Shown: positions 1,176-6,059 of the stretch, one piece after another
How the letters are laid out: every line of letters begins with the position of its first letter
Position numbering within the stretch: the stretch's first letter is position 1
IMG/VR virus record: IMGVR_UViG_2541047498_000021
Source: a virus
Lineage: Duplodnaviria; Heunggongvirae; Uroviricota; Caudoviricetes
DNA: 7,731 bases
Direction: 5' to 3' (one strand)
Notes under the pieces: generated by a model
Seen by the model: the letters and a program-made list of their open reading frames with translations, nothing else
What the model was told of the DNA's origin: nothing
Database searches by the model: none
Made by a program: the position numbers and the translations under genes

Positions 1176-1490
1176 TTGTGTGCGGTTGCGTTGAAGTCTC
1201 CTAGCCAAAGAGTAGCGGTGACCACTCCCCGCCGATAATCTTAGTTGTTTAATTTCGTAAGCTAACTAGGCTAAAAGCTCTCTGTTGTCTGCCTGTTGTA
1301 CAATTAACAAAATGAACAACGAACTAGATATACCAACGCCAGAATGGTGCAACAAATCCCAAACAACACAGCAATGCAACAATAACATATGTTATTTTCC
1401 TCTCACGGGATTCAGTCCTGAATTCTCATAAAGCTAATCTTTTTTTAAAAACATACTGTTAGATCACATGCACTTTCTTTCTTAACATCG

Positions 1491-1518
1491 TTGACTTCGC
1501 ATGCGAAGCGTTTAAAAT
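1491..1518 (+). promoter_or_regulatory. Sigma70-type promoter for the GHKL-ATPase operon
   Basis: TTGACT at 1491-1496, a 16-bp spacer, then TAAAAT at 1513-1518. This is about 50 bp upstream of the ATG at 1571, which has a GAGAG Shine-Dalgarno-like sequence 6-7 nt before it. Confidence 0.5.
1494..1507. promoter_or_regulatory. Perfect 14-bp palindrome CTTCGCATGCGAAG inside the promoter spacer; candidate operator
   Basis: The sequence equals its own reverse complement and lies between the -35 and -10 elements of the operon promoter, where a bound dimeric protein would occlude RNA polymerase. Confidence 0.35.
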
Positions 1519-1570
1519 CAACAATTTGCACTTAAGGTATTTATTTTCCCAAACACATAGAGAGTAAATT

Positions 1571-2962
1571 ATGACTGAGAACACGACTCCAACAGCAGAC
1601 TTTAGTCCTAGTAAAAGATTTTTTGTAAGTATGCTAACTCGAGATATCGACTTAAACGATGCCATACTTGATCTGCTTGATAACTGCGTCGATGGGGCTT
1701 TACGTACAATAAAAGACACAAAAAAAACTTCAAAACCATATGAAGGATTTTATGCGAAACTTACGATTAATAAAGATGTCTTTATTATAGAAGACAATTG
1801 CGGAGGTATCCCTAAAAGCTTCCGAGAATATGCTTTTAAAATGGGACGACCCCATCAAAAAGAAGAAGAAAATGAAGGCACCGTTGGCGTCTATGGTATT
1901 GGTATGAAAAGAGCCATTTTTAAAATGGGTAGAGATTGCTCAATACAATCGAATAATCCCGATGGCGCATTCACTGTAGATATAACACCTGATTGGATCG
2001 ATGGTGATGGTTGGAAAATACCGATGCACGAGAGTGACTATGATAACAAAAATCCAACAGGCACAACTATAGAGATAAAAAAACTCCATTCTAATGTGGC
2101 ACAAAAATTTAATGAGAGCACATATCTTACTGATCTCTTTTTACAGATAAAACACTCATTGTCATTTATTATTCAAAAAGGATTTAAAATAGAATTAAAT
2201 GGAGTTGTTGTTGAACATAATCCGATTAACATCATAACTGATCATTCTAAAATAGAACCATACATATATAAAGCTAAAATAGACGATGTTGATATCGATT
2301 TAGTTGTTGGCTTCTATAAAAATTTAGAAGATGACAATGATGATGTTTTAGAAAAAAGGAGTTCTGATGATGCTGGATGGACTGTCATTTGCAATGACCG
2401 CGTTGTTCTATATTGTGATAAGACACATCTCACAGGTTGGGGCTTTGCTAATGTACCAAGGTTTCATACCCAATTTATAGCAATTTCTGGGGTTGTTCGC
2501 TTTACCAGTAAAAACCCAGAAAAATTACCAATAACAACAACGAAACGAGGTGTCGATCTTAGTTCTACATTGTACAATGATGTACGAAATAAAATGATTG
2601 AAGGGATGATGCATTTTATTCGATTCACCAATCAGTGGAAAGGTGAGCATCTTGAAGAAGGGAAAAAATTACTTAAGTCAGCTCAGTCACATGAAGCTCA
2701 ATCTTTATTTGAAATTACCCCACAATCAACTCCAGAAGATAAAAAAAATAACTGGTCCAACCCTAATAGAAACAAAAATGAGTGGCGATATACACCTAAG
2801 CTGCCTACCCCAGTAAAAAAAAGCTCTACTGTACGAATAATCTTCACCAGAGAGAAAGAAGATGTTAAAATTTTATCTAAATATTTCTTTGGACATGAAG
2901 ATGCTAGCGCTTCTGATGTGGGGATGCAATGCTTTGATACGGTGATTGAAGAGGTGAAGTGA
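1571..2962 (+). CDS. GHKL-superfamily ATPase (Bergerat fold; MORC/paraMORC-like, HATPase_c_3-type) with a C-terminal extension of about 290 aa
   Basis: 463-aa ORF. N-box LDLLDNCVDGA (residues ~33-43), G1 box IIEDNCGGIP (~73-81) and G2 box GVYGIGMKRA (~106-115) are in the canonical order and spacing. The G-x-Y-G-x-G-x-K form of the G2 box is what I associate with MORC-like ATPases. Confidence 0.8.
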   Translation: MTENTTPTADFSPSKRFFVSMLTRDIDLNDAILDLLDNCVDGALRTIKDTKKTSKPYEGFYAKLTINKDVFIIEDNCGGIPKSFREYAFKMGRPHQKEEENEGTVGVYGIGMKRAIFKMGRDCSIQSNNPDGAFTVDITPDWIDGDGWKIPMHESDYDNKNPTGTTIEIKKLHSNVAQKFNESTYLTDLFLQIKHSLSFIIQKGFKIELNGVVVEHNPINIITDHSKIEPYIYKAKIDDVDIDLVVGFYKNLEDDNDDVLEKRSSDDAGWTVICNDRVVLYCDKTHLTGWGFANVPRFHTQFIAISGVVRFTSKNPEKLPITTTKRGVDLSSTLYNDVRNKMIEGMMHFIRFTNQWKGEHLEEGKKLLKSAQSHEAQSLFEITPQSTPEDKKNNWSNPNRNKNEWRYTPKLPTPVKKSSTVRIIFTREKEDVKILSKYFFGHEDASASDVGMQCFDTVIEEVK

Positions 2963-3951
2963 TGTCTGGACAATACATTCCCTATCACTTAAGGCATAAT
3001 AAGTCTATTGATAGAGAGATTTTTCTCGAAAGCCTAAACCTCTTAAGCAAAAGACTAAATATTCAAGAATATACATATATAGGTTTTGGTGGTCCGATGC
3101 TTGAAGATTTTAGAATCATGCATAATCGTATCGCTCTTTCTGATATGATTTCTCTCGAAGAACAAGAGTCTACTCACATCAGACAAAAATATAATTTGCC
3201 TTATAATTGTATTGATTGTAAGCTAATATCAGCTCATGACTTTATTCTTGATTATAGTTTTTCTAAACCATCAATAACATGGTTAGACTATGCCTCCCCG
3301 AAAAAAATACAAACGGATCTAGATGATATACACTTACTAAGTACTAAAGTAAGCTCTTTTGATATTTTGAAGGTCACCTTCCCCATAAATCCTAGTTCTT
3401 ATTACCAACGTAGAGTTGGAGAAAGTTTAGATATTTTTAAAGAAGCTTTTATTAATTCATTAAAATCATTGCTTGGGAAAAAGTATCTTGATTTTAATCT
3501 TCAGATATCAAATGCAGATCTTTCAGATCGTAAGATTAAAGCTCTTTTAATACGAATTATTACAAACGCTTTTAGATCAGCAATAGAACGTGGTCTTTCA
3601 GGACGTAAGGATAAGATTCAGTATTACCCATTATCCTTAAATCAATATAATGATGGCAGTCATACCATGTTGACAATATCAGGTTTTTTCTCCTCAGAAC
3701 AAGAATATATAGAGTTATCTAAGGCATGCGACCTTTCTAACTGGCAATTTTATTCAACAAATTGGGAAGACGTGCAAGAAATAGCAATACCAACACTAAC
3801 AATTAAAGAAAAGATAAATTTAGATAGTAAACTGCCTGATAAAGAAGCATATCAGGCAGCCGCTGAAGAGTTCTCTTTAAACGAAAATGAACGGGATAAC
3901 TATTATAAATACTATAGGTTATACCCTAACTTCCAAAGAATTATGGTTTAA
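2959..3951 (+). CDS. Protein of unknown function, translationally coupled to the GHKL ATPase; candidate effector (possible degenerate PD-(D/E)xK-like core, unverified)
   Basis: 330-aa ORF. The track start is GTG at 2959, but the likely real start is ATG at 2962, which overlaps the upstream TGA (TGATG). I recognise no family. The N-terminal region has an E-rich helix, then YTYIGFGGP, then IALSD, then CIDCK, which is compatible with, but does not prove, a PD-(D/E)xK nuclease core. Confidence 0.75.
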   Translation: MMSGQYIPYHLRHNKSIDREIFLESLNLLSKRLNIQEYTYIGFGGPMLEDFRIMHNRIALSDMISLEEQESTHIRQKYNLPYNCIDCKLISAHDFILDYSFSKPSITWLDYASPKKIQTDLDDIHLLSTKVSSFDILKVTFPINPSSYYQRRVGESLDIFKEAFINSLKSLLGKKYLDFNLQISNADLSDRKIKALLIRIITNAFRSAIERGLSGRKDKIQYYPLSLNQYNDGSHTMLTISGFFSSEQEYIELSKACDLSNWQFYSTNWEDVQEIAIPTLTIKEKINLDSKLPDKEAYQAAAEEFSLNENERDNYYKYYRLYPNFQRIMV

Positions 3952-5070
3952 ATATTCGGGCTGTACTCTTTTATTTAATAAATTGTACAGCCCCTTTAAT
4001 ATATATTCAGCAACTATTGGTGACACGCTATTTCCTATTTGTCTGAAACTATGCCATTTAGTTACATGAAAGCGAAACCAATCAGGGAAGCCTTGTAATC
4101 TAGCAGCTTCTCTTGGTGTAATCACTCTTGGATGATAAGGGTGGATCGGCCTGACGGCTTGAAAGCTTCCTTTATCTCTAGCGGTTCCCGCCCTTAAAGT
4201 CGGGCAAAAACCATTTGGATCTAATCTTGTAGATCTTGAAATTTTATCAGTTTCCCCAAAAGATAAGGAAGCATAACGCTCTTGGACGATTTTGCTATGT
4301 AATGTTCCGGTACATCCAGATATGATATTATTTTTTAACTTAGCGATCGATTCTGTATCACCAACATTCCGAGGGATCTGCCCCCATAATTTTTCATAAA
4401 ATCCCCCTTTTCGATCTTTTTTAATTGTTCGCCAACTCTCAGAGTCTGATTGCCAATTGGCATCGATAATATCTGGTAATCCATACAAAGCATCTTTTAC
4501 AGTAACCGGATCAATCATTTTAGGCATAAATACTTCATCTGAAATATCAAGCTTCAATGATTTTTTTACACCGATAAAAAAATATCTAGTTCGAATAGTT
4601 GGAGCACCATAATCAGATGCTTTTACCTTGATGGGATCAAGAATATCATAATCACCGCTAACCAAATTAAATGCTTTATTTCTAATGCCAGAATATTTCT
4701 CTTGCATAATACCTGGAACATTTTCTGCCAAAAAGAATAATGGCTGTAATTCTGATACTAAACGGTAGAAATGCATGTAAAGCTGATTCCTGCTATCATC
4801 AGGATTCCCCTTGCCTATTGAACTAAATCCTTGGCACGGAGGACCGCCAATAATACCATCTATGGGCATATCGTTTTTAAAAAAACCCTTAATTATTTCT
4901 GCATTTAGTAAAGAAACATCTTCTTGGACGTGCAAACTTCTTGGAAAATTAATTGCGTGAGTATTAATAGCATGTTGATCAATTTCAACTGCCATTTTAA
5001 CATCAAATCCAGCACGTGCAGCACCAAGACTTAGACCTCCAACGCCAGAAAACAAATCTATTACATTCAT
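3919..5070 (-). CDS. DNA (cytosine-5)-methyltransferase
   Basis: 383-aa ORF with the canonical C5-methyltransferase motifs in order: motif I DLFSGVGG, motif IV GGPPCQGFS (catalytic Cys), motif VI ENV (FFLAENVPG), motif VIII-like TIRTRYFF, a variable region of ~130 aa (target-recognition domain), then RLQGFPDWF and motif X GNSVSP. Confidence 0.9.
   Translation of the reverse strand: MNVIDLFSGVGGLSLGAARAGFDVKMAVEIDQHAINTHAINFPRSLHVQEDVSLLNAEIIKGFFKNDMPIDGIIGGPPCQGFSSIGKGNPDDSRNQLYMHFYRLVSELQPLFFLAENVPGIMQEKYSGIRNKAFNLVSGDYDILDPIKVKASDYGAPTIRTRYFFIGVKKSLKLDISDEVFMPKMIDPVTVKDALYGLPDIIDANWQSDSESWRTIKKDRKGGFYEKLWGQIPRNVGDTESIAKLKNNIISGCTGTLHSKIVQERYASLSFGETDKISRSTRLDPNGFCPTLRAGTARDKGSFQAVRPIHPYHPRVITPREAARLQGFPDWFRFHVTKWHSFRQIGNSVSPIVAEYILKGLYNLLNKRVQPEYLNHNSLEVRV
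3958..4005 (+). terminator. Probable intrinsic terminator of the plus-strand operon, embedded in the 3' coding end of the convergent methyltransferase gene
   Basis: 9-bp stem GGGCTGTAC (3958-3966) pairs with GTACAGCCC (3985-3993); the loop is AT-rich with internal pairing potential; the stem is followed by CTTTAATATATATT. It begins 7 nt after the TAA at 3949-3951. Confidence 0.4.
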
Positions 5071-5095
5071 ATAGTTGCAACGTCTCTTATTAGTT

Positions 5096-5132
5096 TCTAT
5101 GTATTATAACACAACTGTTCTTGATGTTTTAA
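5096..5132 (-). promoter_or_regulatory. Candidate extended -10 promoter for the methyltransferase gene
   Basis: The minus strand reads TTAAAA (plus 5127-5132), an 18-bp spacer, then TGT-TATAAT (hexamer at plus 5103-5108 with a TG two bases upstream). This is about 26-30 nt upstream of the ATG at 5070. Confidence 0.45.
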
Positions 5133-5332
5133 CCCCATAAGATAACCTCATAAAGGCTATCCCTTGAAAATACCGGATCGCATAAATTTAATCTTTCAAA
5201 ACTACTTGTCTATTAATCGAGCAATTTAAGGTTGTTTTAGTCATGTCGATACCGACATAGTTAACTAAACCCATTTCATCGTCCAACAAATGGGGGTAAT
5301 ACACTTTGATTTATAGTCGGGTGGGTTTTTCT

Positions 5333-5368
5333 CTATCTGCCTTTGGTGTTCATGCCCAAGGCAGATAG
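5333..5368. repeat. Near-perfect inverted repeat (about 13-bp arms, 9-nt loop) at the cassette/phage junction
   Basis: CTATCTGCCTTTGG (5333-5346) is the reverse complement of CCAAGGCAGATAG (5356-5368) apart from a one-base bulge. No U-tract follows on either strand, so it is not a canonical intrinsic terminator. Confidence 0.5.
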
Positions 5369-5501
5369 CCTCAAGCACCCGCAGCAATTCTACTTAACTA
5401 TCCTTTTCCCGCAAACCGTTTTTATCCCCAGCGGCAAATCGAATACACCACCAGCGCCACCGCCATCGCAATTCCTACCGTTGTGAATGCTTCAGGCCAG
5501 G

Positions 5502-6059
5502 TCATTGATTCACCTCCTGCGGCGGTTCTGGTAGCGACATCCAGTGGGTTGCTTGCCTAAGATCATTACCCGGACTAACTGCTATACCTCCGCGCCGGAA
5601 CGTGCCTCCGAGATAGCGTGCGGAATATATTAATGGCCCAGCCTCGCTATCGATATTCATCGAAATAAGCACGTTCTGGCTCTTTTCAGGCATTCGCTCA
5701 GTACAGCTTATCCAGCCATCCAGAGTTATCGGAGATCTGGTTGACGTTTCCGAGATTTCCCGAAAATTGTTGGTTGACGAATTCTTATTTTCCCGAAAGT
5801 TTCCGGCCTGAAGCATGGCGACGCGGCAGGCGTTCCAGCCATCAGCATATGTTTTAGTTACACCGTCGAGATGGCAGGTAAGCAAATCCATTTCATCAGG
5901 CACTACCATTGCTATCGGCTCTGCTTCCAGTGATGCCAGCGCGATACGAAACACATTAGCCAGCAGGCTGTCTGAAGACTTGTTATCGTGCGCCGAGTCG
6001 CTCAGGAAGCCTGTGATGTATGATTTAATCTCCGCGCGTTCTCTGGTAATAGTGCTCAT
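5502..6059 (-). CDS. Phage protein with a C-terminal DUF551 domain
   Basis: 185-aa ORF. The C-terminal segment GWISCTERMPE ... ATHWMSLPEPP matches the W-I-x-x-x-E-x-x-P ... THWMPLPEPP signature I recall for DUF551 in enterobacterial prophages. GC-normal and tightly packed with its neighbour. Confidence 0.75.
   Translation of the reverse strand: MSTITRERAEIKSYITGFLSDSAHDNKSSDSLLANVFRIALASLEAEPIAMVVPDEMDLLTCHLDGVTKTYADGWNACRVAMLQAGNFRENKNSSTNNFREISETSTRSPITLDGWISCTERMPEKSQNVLISMNIDSEAGPLIYSARYLGGTFRRGGIAVSPGNDLRQATHWMSLPEPPQEVNQ

Follow-up and report, generated by a model that had tools for sequence, protein, structure and literature searches.

A MORC-type GHKL ATPase, a methyltransferase-fold partner and a cytosine methylase form a conserved three-gene module carried by a Rac-like prophage

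Genes of the locus

The Caudoviricetes record IMGVR_UViG_2541047498_000021 includes a stretch of 7,731 nucleotides (hereafter the window) in which a GHKL ATPase gene is followed by a gene of the Methyltransf_35 family (hereafter the partner) and faces a convergent C5 cytosine methylase gene (hereafter Dcm). The ATPase had been described in a first-pass annotation of the sequence, which did not mention Dcm, the third conserved component. The three genes are as follows.

1571-2962, + strand: MORC-type GHKL+S5 ATPase gene, ATG start, TGA stop, 463 amino acids (aa)
2962-3951, + strand: partner gene, 329 aa, PF20553 (Methyltransf_35), class I S-adenosylmethionine (SAM) methyltransferase fold (Pfam match and structural model)
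3919-5070, - strand: C5 DNA cytosine methyltransferase gene (Dcm), 383 aa, PF00145 match with E=2.6e-61, convergent with the partner gene

The ATPase is a MORC-type GHKL+S5 protein

RefSeq carries an entry at coordinates identical to those of the ATPase gene (WP_000138556.1) under the generic name 'ATP-binding protein'; PHROGs classes both the ATPase and the partner as 'unknown function', the source databases name them generically, and NCBIfam gave nothing informative for either. The Pfam profile HATPase_c_3, which the first-pass annotation had proposed as a check, matches residues 28-132 with a score over its cut-off (E=2.9e-9). The homologue search retrieved more than 5430 full-length proteins of 460-480 aa, with a best E of 1e-280, from Enterobacterales, Gemmatimonadota, cyanobacteria, Nitrospirota, Methylomonas and others; they correspond to thousands of clusters at 90% identity. 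The Pfam match, the number of homologues and the conservation of the motifs together show, far beyond chance, that this open reading frame (ORF) is a real gene. Residue conservation in the ATPase was scored over 84 homologues with a threshold of at least 95%. The features of the ATPase are listed below.

1661-1696, + strand: GHKL motif I (N box), residues 31-42, AILDLLDNCVDG, with the acidic pair D34/D37, N38 and D41; helix 28-46 in the model, at least 95% conserved
1787-1813, + strand: G1 box, residues 73-81, IEDNCGGIP; conserved and aligned with DNGNGM of MORC3
1880-1924, + strand: ATP lid and G2 box, residues 104-118, TVGVYGIGMKRAIFK; aligned with VGLYGNGFKSGSMRLGK of MORC3
2060-2065, + strand: G164-T165, at the position that we take, from general knowledge of GHKL proteins, to be the fourth GHKL motif; at least 95% conserved
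2183-2566, + strand: S5-like transducer domain, about residues 205-332, from structure comparison with GHKL+S5 modules
2375-2407, + strand: MORC signature GhXhhpXXRhl as G269-W-T-V-I-C-N-D-R-V-V279; pattern match, conserved
2525-2551, + strand: loop LPITTTKRG with the invariant K325, a candidate gamma-phosphate sensor, preceding a long helix (333-355 in the model)
2567-2959, + strand: C-terminal helical extension, residues 333-463, from the predicted model

The residues that reach the conservation threshold are D34, D37, N38, D41 and G42 in the N box, D75, N76, C77, G78 and G79 in the G1 box, G106, Y108, G109, G111 and K113 in the G2 box, and G164, T165 and K325. The three ATP-binding signatures that the first-pass annotation had reported as intact and in order are indeed so: LDLLDNCVDGA at residues 33-43, IIEDNCGGIP at 72-81 and GVYGIGMKRA at 106-115. 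The G1 box (D75-N-C-G-G-I80) has a variant spacing and is not D-x-G-x-G. In the model, a lid loop of low confidence (97-107) is followed by helix 110-119, and the G2 box reads G106-V-Y-G-I-G-M-K113. The N box reads D34-L-L-D37-N38-C-V-D41-G42, its acidic residues being Asp rather than Glu. D34 is the residue usually named the general base and D37 is the second acidic residue; GyrB E42D, with an Asp in place of Glu, retains reduced activity. MutL, GyrB and MORC3 carry Glu at the first acidic position, where the ATPase has Asp. According to a study of MutL and GyrB (PMC13614785), the two acidic positions cooperate, and for hydrolysis one or both of them must be able to accept a proton. Since both acidic residues are present, this two-acid model suggests that the site is plausibly active, although it may be slow.

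The predicted structure (predicted local distance difference test, pLDDT, 82) shows a Bergerat fold. In structure comparisons, the solved structures closest to the model are those of MORC3 (score 19.0 over 272 residues), SMCHD1 (16.8 over 286 residues) and MORC2 (15.8 over 299 residues), and not those of histidine kinases. TRAP1, MutL, the ATPase domains of topoisomerases and Hsp90 rank below the MORCs (13.8 and lower, over 139-303 residues). The 272-299 aligned residues cover the GHKL+S5 modules of MORC3, MORC2 and SMCHD1, and define the S5-like transducer domain for which the first-pass annotation had seen room. At the sequence level, MORC3 and MORC4 come first when the family profile is compared with PDB sequences, a weak match (E 0.03-0.1) confined to the G1-G2 region, in which DNCGGIP...VGVYGIGMKRAIFKLGK of the ATPase is aligned over DNGNGM...VGLYGNGFKSGSMRLGK of MORC3. 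The suggestion that the G2 box is MORC-like thus agrees with this weak alignment.

The S5-like domain carries the motif GhXhhpXXRhl, which sets MORCs apart from paraMORCs in the passages of Iyer et al. 2008 used here (PMC2292703). Within it, G269, W270, T271, C274, N275, D276, R277 and V279 are conserved at the threshold. A profile restricted to the S5 domain reached no MORC among PDB sequences, and the assignment of the signature therefore rests on the pattern and the fold. Judging from these features, the module appears to have both characters, GHKL+S5 and GhXhhpXXRhl, by which the same passages recognize the MORC family. Altogether, the data support the classification of the ATPase as a MORC-type GHKL+S5 protein, as first proposed. 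Neither of the results that the first-pass annotation had named as contradicting it, placement in a different GHKL branch or failure to model a Bergerat fold, was obtained.

An assignment to another GHKL branch (sensor histidine kinase, Hsp90, MutL proper or topoisomerase subunit), or to a decayed remnant, could be sought in a weak NCBIfam match to DpiB, the only kinase match obtained (16 bits for a cut-off of 656), and in a sub-threshold HATPase_c match in the Pfam scan. However, no HisKA, MutL_C, DNA_mis_repair, Toprim or Hsp90 domain was found with Pfam, the ATPase domain begins at residue 28 with no HisKA/H-box domain before it, and MORC structures head the structural ranking. The motifs are invariant across thousands of full-length homologues and 172 E. 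coli genomes carry an intact copy of the gene, in line with the earlier view that it is probably not a decayed remnant. This alternative is effectively refuted.

The S5 domain also includes an invariant polar cluster, D276, D283, H299 and Q301 (CNDR...D...TGWG...H-x-Q-F, at about 2396-2473 in the window). This cluster extends beyond the MORC signature as published, and the long ATPase variants described below retain it with conservative substitutions. These residues could form an interface with the partner or a catalytic site.

The segment PITTTKRG, in which the first-pass annotation had placed a possible gamma-phosphate-contacting lysine, is present at residues 320-327. K325 is invariant, and its position in a loop ahead of a long helix matches that of the gamma-phosphate-sensing lysine of MutL and GyrB; the contact itself is, as before, inferred. 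The region of about 290 aa that had been left unassigned now resolves into the end of the GHKL domain and the S5-like domain (205-332), so that only a helical extension of 130 residues (333-463) stays without a family. This extension keeps conserved residues of its own (T353, W356, K357, L411, P412, P414, G451 and F455). It has no Pfam match at E<=10, and its own profile finds nothing in PDB or Pfam. Neither Pfam nor PADLOC detected in it a PD-(D/E)xK nuclease (DUF4263), and Pfam, NCBIfam and PADLOC scans of the whole ATPase gave no nuclease domain, in agreement with the earlier remark on the lack of a nuclease motif. More generally, searches of PDB sequences with the S5 domain, the C-terminal extension and the partner, the last both as a single sequence and as a profile, returned nothing or chance matches. 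The last 45 residues (a strand and two helices) were considered as a ribbon-helix-helix DNA-binding motif; no profile or family supports this idea, which is speculation.

The partner has a methyltransferase fold

The ATG of the partner (2962) overlaps the stop codon of the ATPase gene (TGATG) and is preceded by a GAGGTG Shine-Dalgarno sequence. Pfam PF20553 ('Methyltransf_35, putative O-methyltransferase') covers residues 1-328 of 329 with E=2e-89 and 300.4 bits for a cut-off of 27, and no further family matches at E<=10. The model (pLDDT 89) is a class I Rossmann methyltransferase, and there is no doubt that this is the predicted fold. Foldseek places Trm1 first (E=2.3e-6, template modelling score 0.44), followed by many small-molecule methyltransferases. 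The following positions can be distinguished.

3076-3111, + strand: motif I, residues 39-50, YIGFGGPMLEDF, right after strand beta1 (38-42 in the model)
3157-3159, + strand: E66, end of strand beta2 (61-66 in the model), at least 95% conserved
3286-3291, + strand: D109-Y110, end of strand beta4 (104-109 in the model), putative motif IV (catalytic) position

Y39 is conserved in at least 95% of homologues and G43/G44 in 85-95%, beta1 being followed by FGGP. D109 also reaches 95%, and the conserved residues occupy the canonical positions of motifs I, II and IV of class I methyltransferases. From its place in the model, E66 would be the acidic residue that, in canonical enzymes of this class, binds the ribose of SAM. 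The 'O-' of the Pfam name has no support in the case of the partner. The first-pass annotation had expected the effector function to lie in this downstream gene: the protein is indeed paired with the ATPase and co-evolves with it, but it has a methyltransferase fold and not that of a nuclease.

The family comprises 2123 clusters at 50% identity (E<=0.001). Its 150 best-scoring members are all single-domain proteins, mostly of 320-345 aa and without fusion. The partner has a conserved N-terminal basic motif, Y-H-L-R-x-N-K-x3-R. A distant relationship to RlmJ was considered on the basis of Y-H-L-R-x-N-K, and hhalign comparisons with E. coli RlmJ and RsmJ found nothing.

The cytosine methylase

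The translation of Dcm shows GGPPCQ, ENV and GNSV, and all catalytic motifs of C5 methylases are there. Over 367 residues Dcm has the same sequence as PDB entry 3G7U (100% identity), which is titled 'Cytosine-specific methyltransferase'; one component of the module thus already has a solved structure. We take this entry to be a structural-genomics deposit from prophage CP-933R. No functional study of 3G7U or Dcm was found in the literature searched. The complete set of motifs, together with the T:G mismatch repair genes present in half of the related loci (see below), makes it very probable that Dcm is active on resident DNA and writes 5-methylcytosine. The partner and Dcm genes overlap by 33 bp at their 3' ends (3919-3951), and transcription of each must therefore run into the other. 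By analogy with some convergent restriction-modification (R-M) gene pairs, this arrangement could allow antisense or collision-type regulation.

Conservation of the three-gene module

A scan of a genome collection identified at least 585 stretches encoding a relative. The best 80 loci, one per species and from many phyla, were retained with 7 kb on each side, which gives 81 loci with the window. In 77 of them (76 of the 80 other species) the partner gene comes directly after the ATPase gene, with a stop/start overlap of -4 nt in most. Pairwise identities of ATPase and partner are strongly correlated (r = 0.92), while those of each with Dcm are correlated only at about 0.37. The ATPase and the partner are therefore a translationally coupled, co-evolving and obligate pair. 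A cytosine methylase lies within the locus in 73 of the 80 other species. As regards position, Dcm is immediately upstream and co-directional in 53 of the 81 loci; in 10, including the window, it is downstream and convergent, in 3 it is downstream and reads in the same direction as the pair, and in 4 it has another place in the locus. Two Dcm classes accompany equally related ATPase-partner pairs, and on these sequence comparisons Dcm appears to evolve semi-independently of the pair. The full triad is found on 67 of the 73 viral contigs carrying a relative. The module is patchy across phyla and carried on prophages. Some of its immediate neighbours belong to type I R-M, MADS, HNH or DRT systems or are transposases.

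Clustering of all ORFs revealed only one further type of recurrent neighbour, T:G mismatch repair genes, with Vsr in 33 of the 81 loci, an HhH-GPD glycosylase in 8, and thus one or the other in 41. This association raises the possibility of a 'methylate and repair' cassette, unrelated to defence, in which the MORC-type ATPase would act as a MutL-like matchmaker stimulating Vsr or the glycosylase at T:G mismatches that arise from deamination of the 5-methylcytosine made by Dcm. MutL stimulates Vsr in E. coli. A parallel of this kind had already been drawn in the passages of Iyer et al. 2008 used here (PMC2292703). However, half of the loci, including the window, have no linked Vsr or glycosylase, and Vsr is a common companion of any C5 methylase. 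Moreover, the cassette leaves no role for the methyltransferase-fold partner, and the patchy distribution, prophage carriage and defence neighbours better suit a mobile conflict system. We therefore regard a repair function as unlikely.

Variants of the ATPase

Five distant viral loci (L153, L154, L156, L157 and L158; e.g. L158:5974-7719) encode ATPases of 573-586 aa with about 30% identity. These long proteins keep the MORC-type module and follow Dcm, sometimes with Vsr, and no partner gene is present. They add an all-helical C-terminal domain of about 150 aa, which may be an alternative effector. Its resemblance to HEPN domains was considered and is not supported, no Pfam family matching at E<=10. 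In two other loci a second GHKL gene lies directly upstream of the ATPase of the triad: at L081:5210-6850 its product has a C-terminal Hypoth_Ymh domain (PF09509), and at L010:4593-6206 it is a paralogue with 39% identity.

The replacement of the partner by an extra helical domain in these five viral loci suggests exchangeable effectors, and together with the Hypoth_Ymh domain of the L081 paralogue it could point to an abortive-infection switch. The ATPase would then sense unmethylated or foreign DNA and activate the partner to methylate rRNA or tRNA, or to consume SAM, so that the infected cell is stopped and the phage DNA itself is not the target. However, hhalign detects no sequence relation of the partner to RlmJ or RsmJ, an effector directed at RNA relies on generic fold matches only, and the extra domain of the long ATPases matches no family. 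We also know of no methyltransferase toxin. Such a switch is quite improbable.

Prophage context and distribution in E. coli

The three genes lie in an island of distinct composition, with one promoter-like site upstream of the ATPase gene and another upstream of the Dcm gene.

1250-5250, no strand: low-GC island holding the ATPase, partner and Dcm genes; about 31-39% GC against about 50% in the flanks (composition profile)
1491-1518, + strand: promoter-like site TTGACT-16-TAAAAT, 52 nt upstream of the ATPase start (consensus scan, weak)
5103-5132, - strand: promoter-like site TTAAAA-18-TATAAT, with extended TG, upstream of the Dcm gene (consensus scan, weak)

The promoter-like sites are weak evidence because their number in the region is not above that in shuffled sequences. 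The island sits in the nin region of a Rac-like lambdoid prophage, flanked by YbcO and DUF1367 genes on the left and by a DUF551 gene on the right. In E. coli O157:H7 PA20 the context is a Rac-like prophage with intR, xisR, recET, ralR, kilR and sieB. The ATPase-partner pair runs against the phage early genes and Dcm runs with them. The whole island is present at 99% identity or more in 172 of 5426 complete E. coli genomes, the pair and Dcm occurring together in every genome that has the island.

E. coli O157:H7 F6294 carries the sole partial island among 173 genomes. In this strain the match to the 2330-base query breaks off within the partner gene, at base 1760, and no methylase is present, so that the 3' part of the partner and Dcm were lost together. 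At the right edge of the island, positions 5256-5380 (- strand) match the sok antitoxin RNA just under the Rfam gathering score (50.2 against 59 bits, E=2.5e-10), and positions 5323-5500 are 92-97% identical to a stretch of Shiga toxin (Stx) phages annotated as the sokW antisense RNA in phage 933W. No intact hok-like ORF lies near the sok match, and the region looks like a hok/sok remnant. The adjacent ORF 5502-6059 (- strand) encodes 185 aa with DUF551 at residues 115-181; RefSeq (PA20) annotates its last 81 codons only.

The phage setting, with the triad on prophages and viral contigs and Dcm oriented here with the phage early genes, would also be compatible with a DNA (hyper)modification machine. 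Both methyltransferase-fold proteins would modify DNA, the ATPase loading or activating one of them, and a composite mark would shield phage and host DNA, with an anti-restriction or epigenetic function. The presence of two methyltransferase folds and no nuclease agrees with this proposal, and MANTIS offers the precedent of a dedicated ATPase that loads a methyltransferase in an ATP-dependent manner (preprint 10.64898/2026.09.23.753747). However, most members are chromosomal with no phage genes nearby, and transcription of the pair opposes that of the phage operons. In addition, the motif IV region of the partner reads W-L-D-Y and not the (D/N/S)PP(Y/F) of known DNA amino-methyltransferases, and neither Pfam (E<=10) nor a profile search of PDB relates the partner to DNA methyltransferase families. 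A low probability is assigned to a modification machine.

A restriction-modification-like reading of the triad

We tentatively favour the view that the triad is an R-M-like module of self/non-self discrimination, carried as lysogen cargo by the Rac-like prophage. Precedent comes from predicted R-M operons in which MORC genes accompany DNA methylases and Vsr, as described in the passages of Iyer et al. 2008 used here (PMC2292703). In such a module, Dcm would write a 5-methylcytosine self mark on resident DNA. The ATPase and the partner would form a complex, presumably via the family-specific C-terminal extension of the ATPase, and ATP binding would dimerize the GHKL domains in the manner of MORC, MutL and topoisomerase ATPases, closing the complex on DNA. 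The complex would act on DNA without the Dcm mark, the methyltransferase-fold subunit being either a base-probing recognition part or the effector. The loose evolutionary coupling of Dcm to the pair suggests that Dcm would supply the sequence specificity as well as the self mark, as do Mod in type III systems and PglX in BREX. Interference would proceed by ATP-dependent clamping, blocking or modification of the invading nucleic acid rather than by cleavage, a preference due to the lack of a conserved nuclease; this is the weakest step of the scheme.

Several observations count against this R-M-like view. Apart from Vsr, the neighbours in the 81 loci include no conserved nuclease or helicase, nor any other effector of the classical restriction type. 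With respect to type II R-M systems, the gene of a cognate DNA methyltransferase is present (PF00145), and no restriction endonuclease gene was found in the module or conserved in these loci. No PADLOC-DB 2.0.0 model matches the ATPase or the partner (E<=0.01), and Dcm fits generic methylase models only. The fold of the partner does not reveal its substrate, Foldseek placing small-molecule methyltransferases beside Trm1. Seven cyanobacterial species (L002/L007, L012, L015, L018, L035, L045 and L059) have the pair with no Dcm in 7 kb on either side, and in four cyanobacterial loci (L034, L046, L071 and L073) the ATPase and Dcm are found with no partner; because of these two groups of loci, a strict dependence of the R-M type is not shown. 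Finally, the literature searched contained no experimental report on the module.

In two of the four cyanobacterial loci devoid of a partner, a gene of 270 aa follows Dcm; it was considered as a diverged partner, which hhalign did not support. Four genes found upstream of the ATPase in some cyanobacteria were likewise considered as an alternative system. They encode CinA, dehydroquinase, MiaE and a GNAT protein and correspond to housekeeping synteny.

The R-M-like reading can be carried further, to a nuclease-free R-M system in which a MORC dimer, guided by the methyltransferase-fold subunit, would clamp or compact and thereby silence DNA lacking the 5-methylcytosine mark. It would then be a living model of the ancestral state behind the eukaryotic axis of MORC and DNA-methylation silencing. 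We consider this extended form rather doubtful. The passages of Iyer et al. 2008 used here (PMC2292703) predict that prokaryotic MORCs, acting in methylation-based conflict systems, are ancestors of the eukaryotic MORC silencing ATPases. Should restriction without cutting prove true, it would represent a new effector logic for R-M, and the origin of MORC-mediated silencing would become directly testable. If the partner is instead a second nucleic-acid methyltransferase loaded by the ATPase, ATPase-dependent epigenetic marking would extend to the GHKL superfamily.

Comparison with known systems

Relative to the first-pass annotation, the present analysis adds the S5 domain and the MORC signature, the methyltransferase fold of the partner, Dcm as a third component, and the breadth and rigidity of the triad. 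The literature searched yielded no study of the ATPase-partner-Dcm module and no experimental test of prokaryotic MORCs; a preprint on Caulobacter ScmA/VsrA was considered and is unrelated.

Compared with eukaryotic MORC2, MORC3, MORC4 and SMCHD1, the ATPase shows a sequence identity of just 14-16%. It lacks their CW zinc finger, coiled coil and hinge, has a different C-terminal extension and carries Asp for Glu at the catalytic base. Its partners are bacterial methyltransferases.

The module resembles the MutL/Vsr system of very-short-patch repair in that a GHKL+S5 ATPase is genetically tied to a C5 methylase and Vsr. It differs by the absence of the MutL C-terminal dimerization/endonuclease domain, by the irregular presence of Vsr (33 of 81 loci, and not in the window) and by the additional methyltransferase-fold subunit. 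It shares a GHKL ATPase with paraMORC3/GHKL-Shedu (VcSduA, PMC12137116), where this ATPase participates in phage defence and is predicted to control an effector. However, the GHKL-Shedu effector is a fused PD-(D/E)xK (DUF4263) nuclease, whereas the module has a separate methyltransferase fold and no nuclease was found in it. BREX and MANTIS (Gao_RL) are functional analogues: these multi-subunit systems discriminate self from non-self by methylation, and their ATPase works with a target-recognizing methyltransferase. Their families are unrelated to those of the module, since they use AAA+ or BrxC ATPases and N6-adenine methyltransferases, and the PADLOC scan detected no homology. MANTIS also has a helicase-nuclease effector, and none was recognized in the module.

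The closest comparison is with the prokaryotic MORCs of Iyer, Abhiman and Aravind 2008, which the passages used here (PMC2292703) predict to lie in R-M operons with cytosine methylases and Vsr. GHKL+S5, GhXhhpXXRhl, the linkage to cytosine methylases and Vsr, and a patchy spread suggestive of lateral transfer are common to both. About 70% of the neighbourhoods reported there include a superfamily II helicase and a nuclease, whereas the present module has neither, and its constant PF20553 partner is not mentioned in those passages. The linkage of MORC and methylase was thus predicted in 2008, and the kind of system is unsurprising; what distinguishes the module is that it is compact and widespread. 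With three genes and neither helicase nor nuclease it is the simplest version of a prokaryotic MORC system so far, and its presence in a standard laboratory species makes it an accessible entry to the function of bacterial MORCs.

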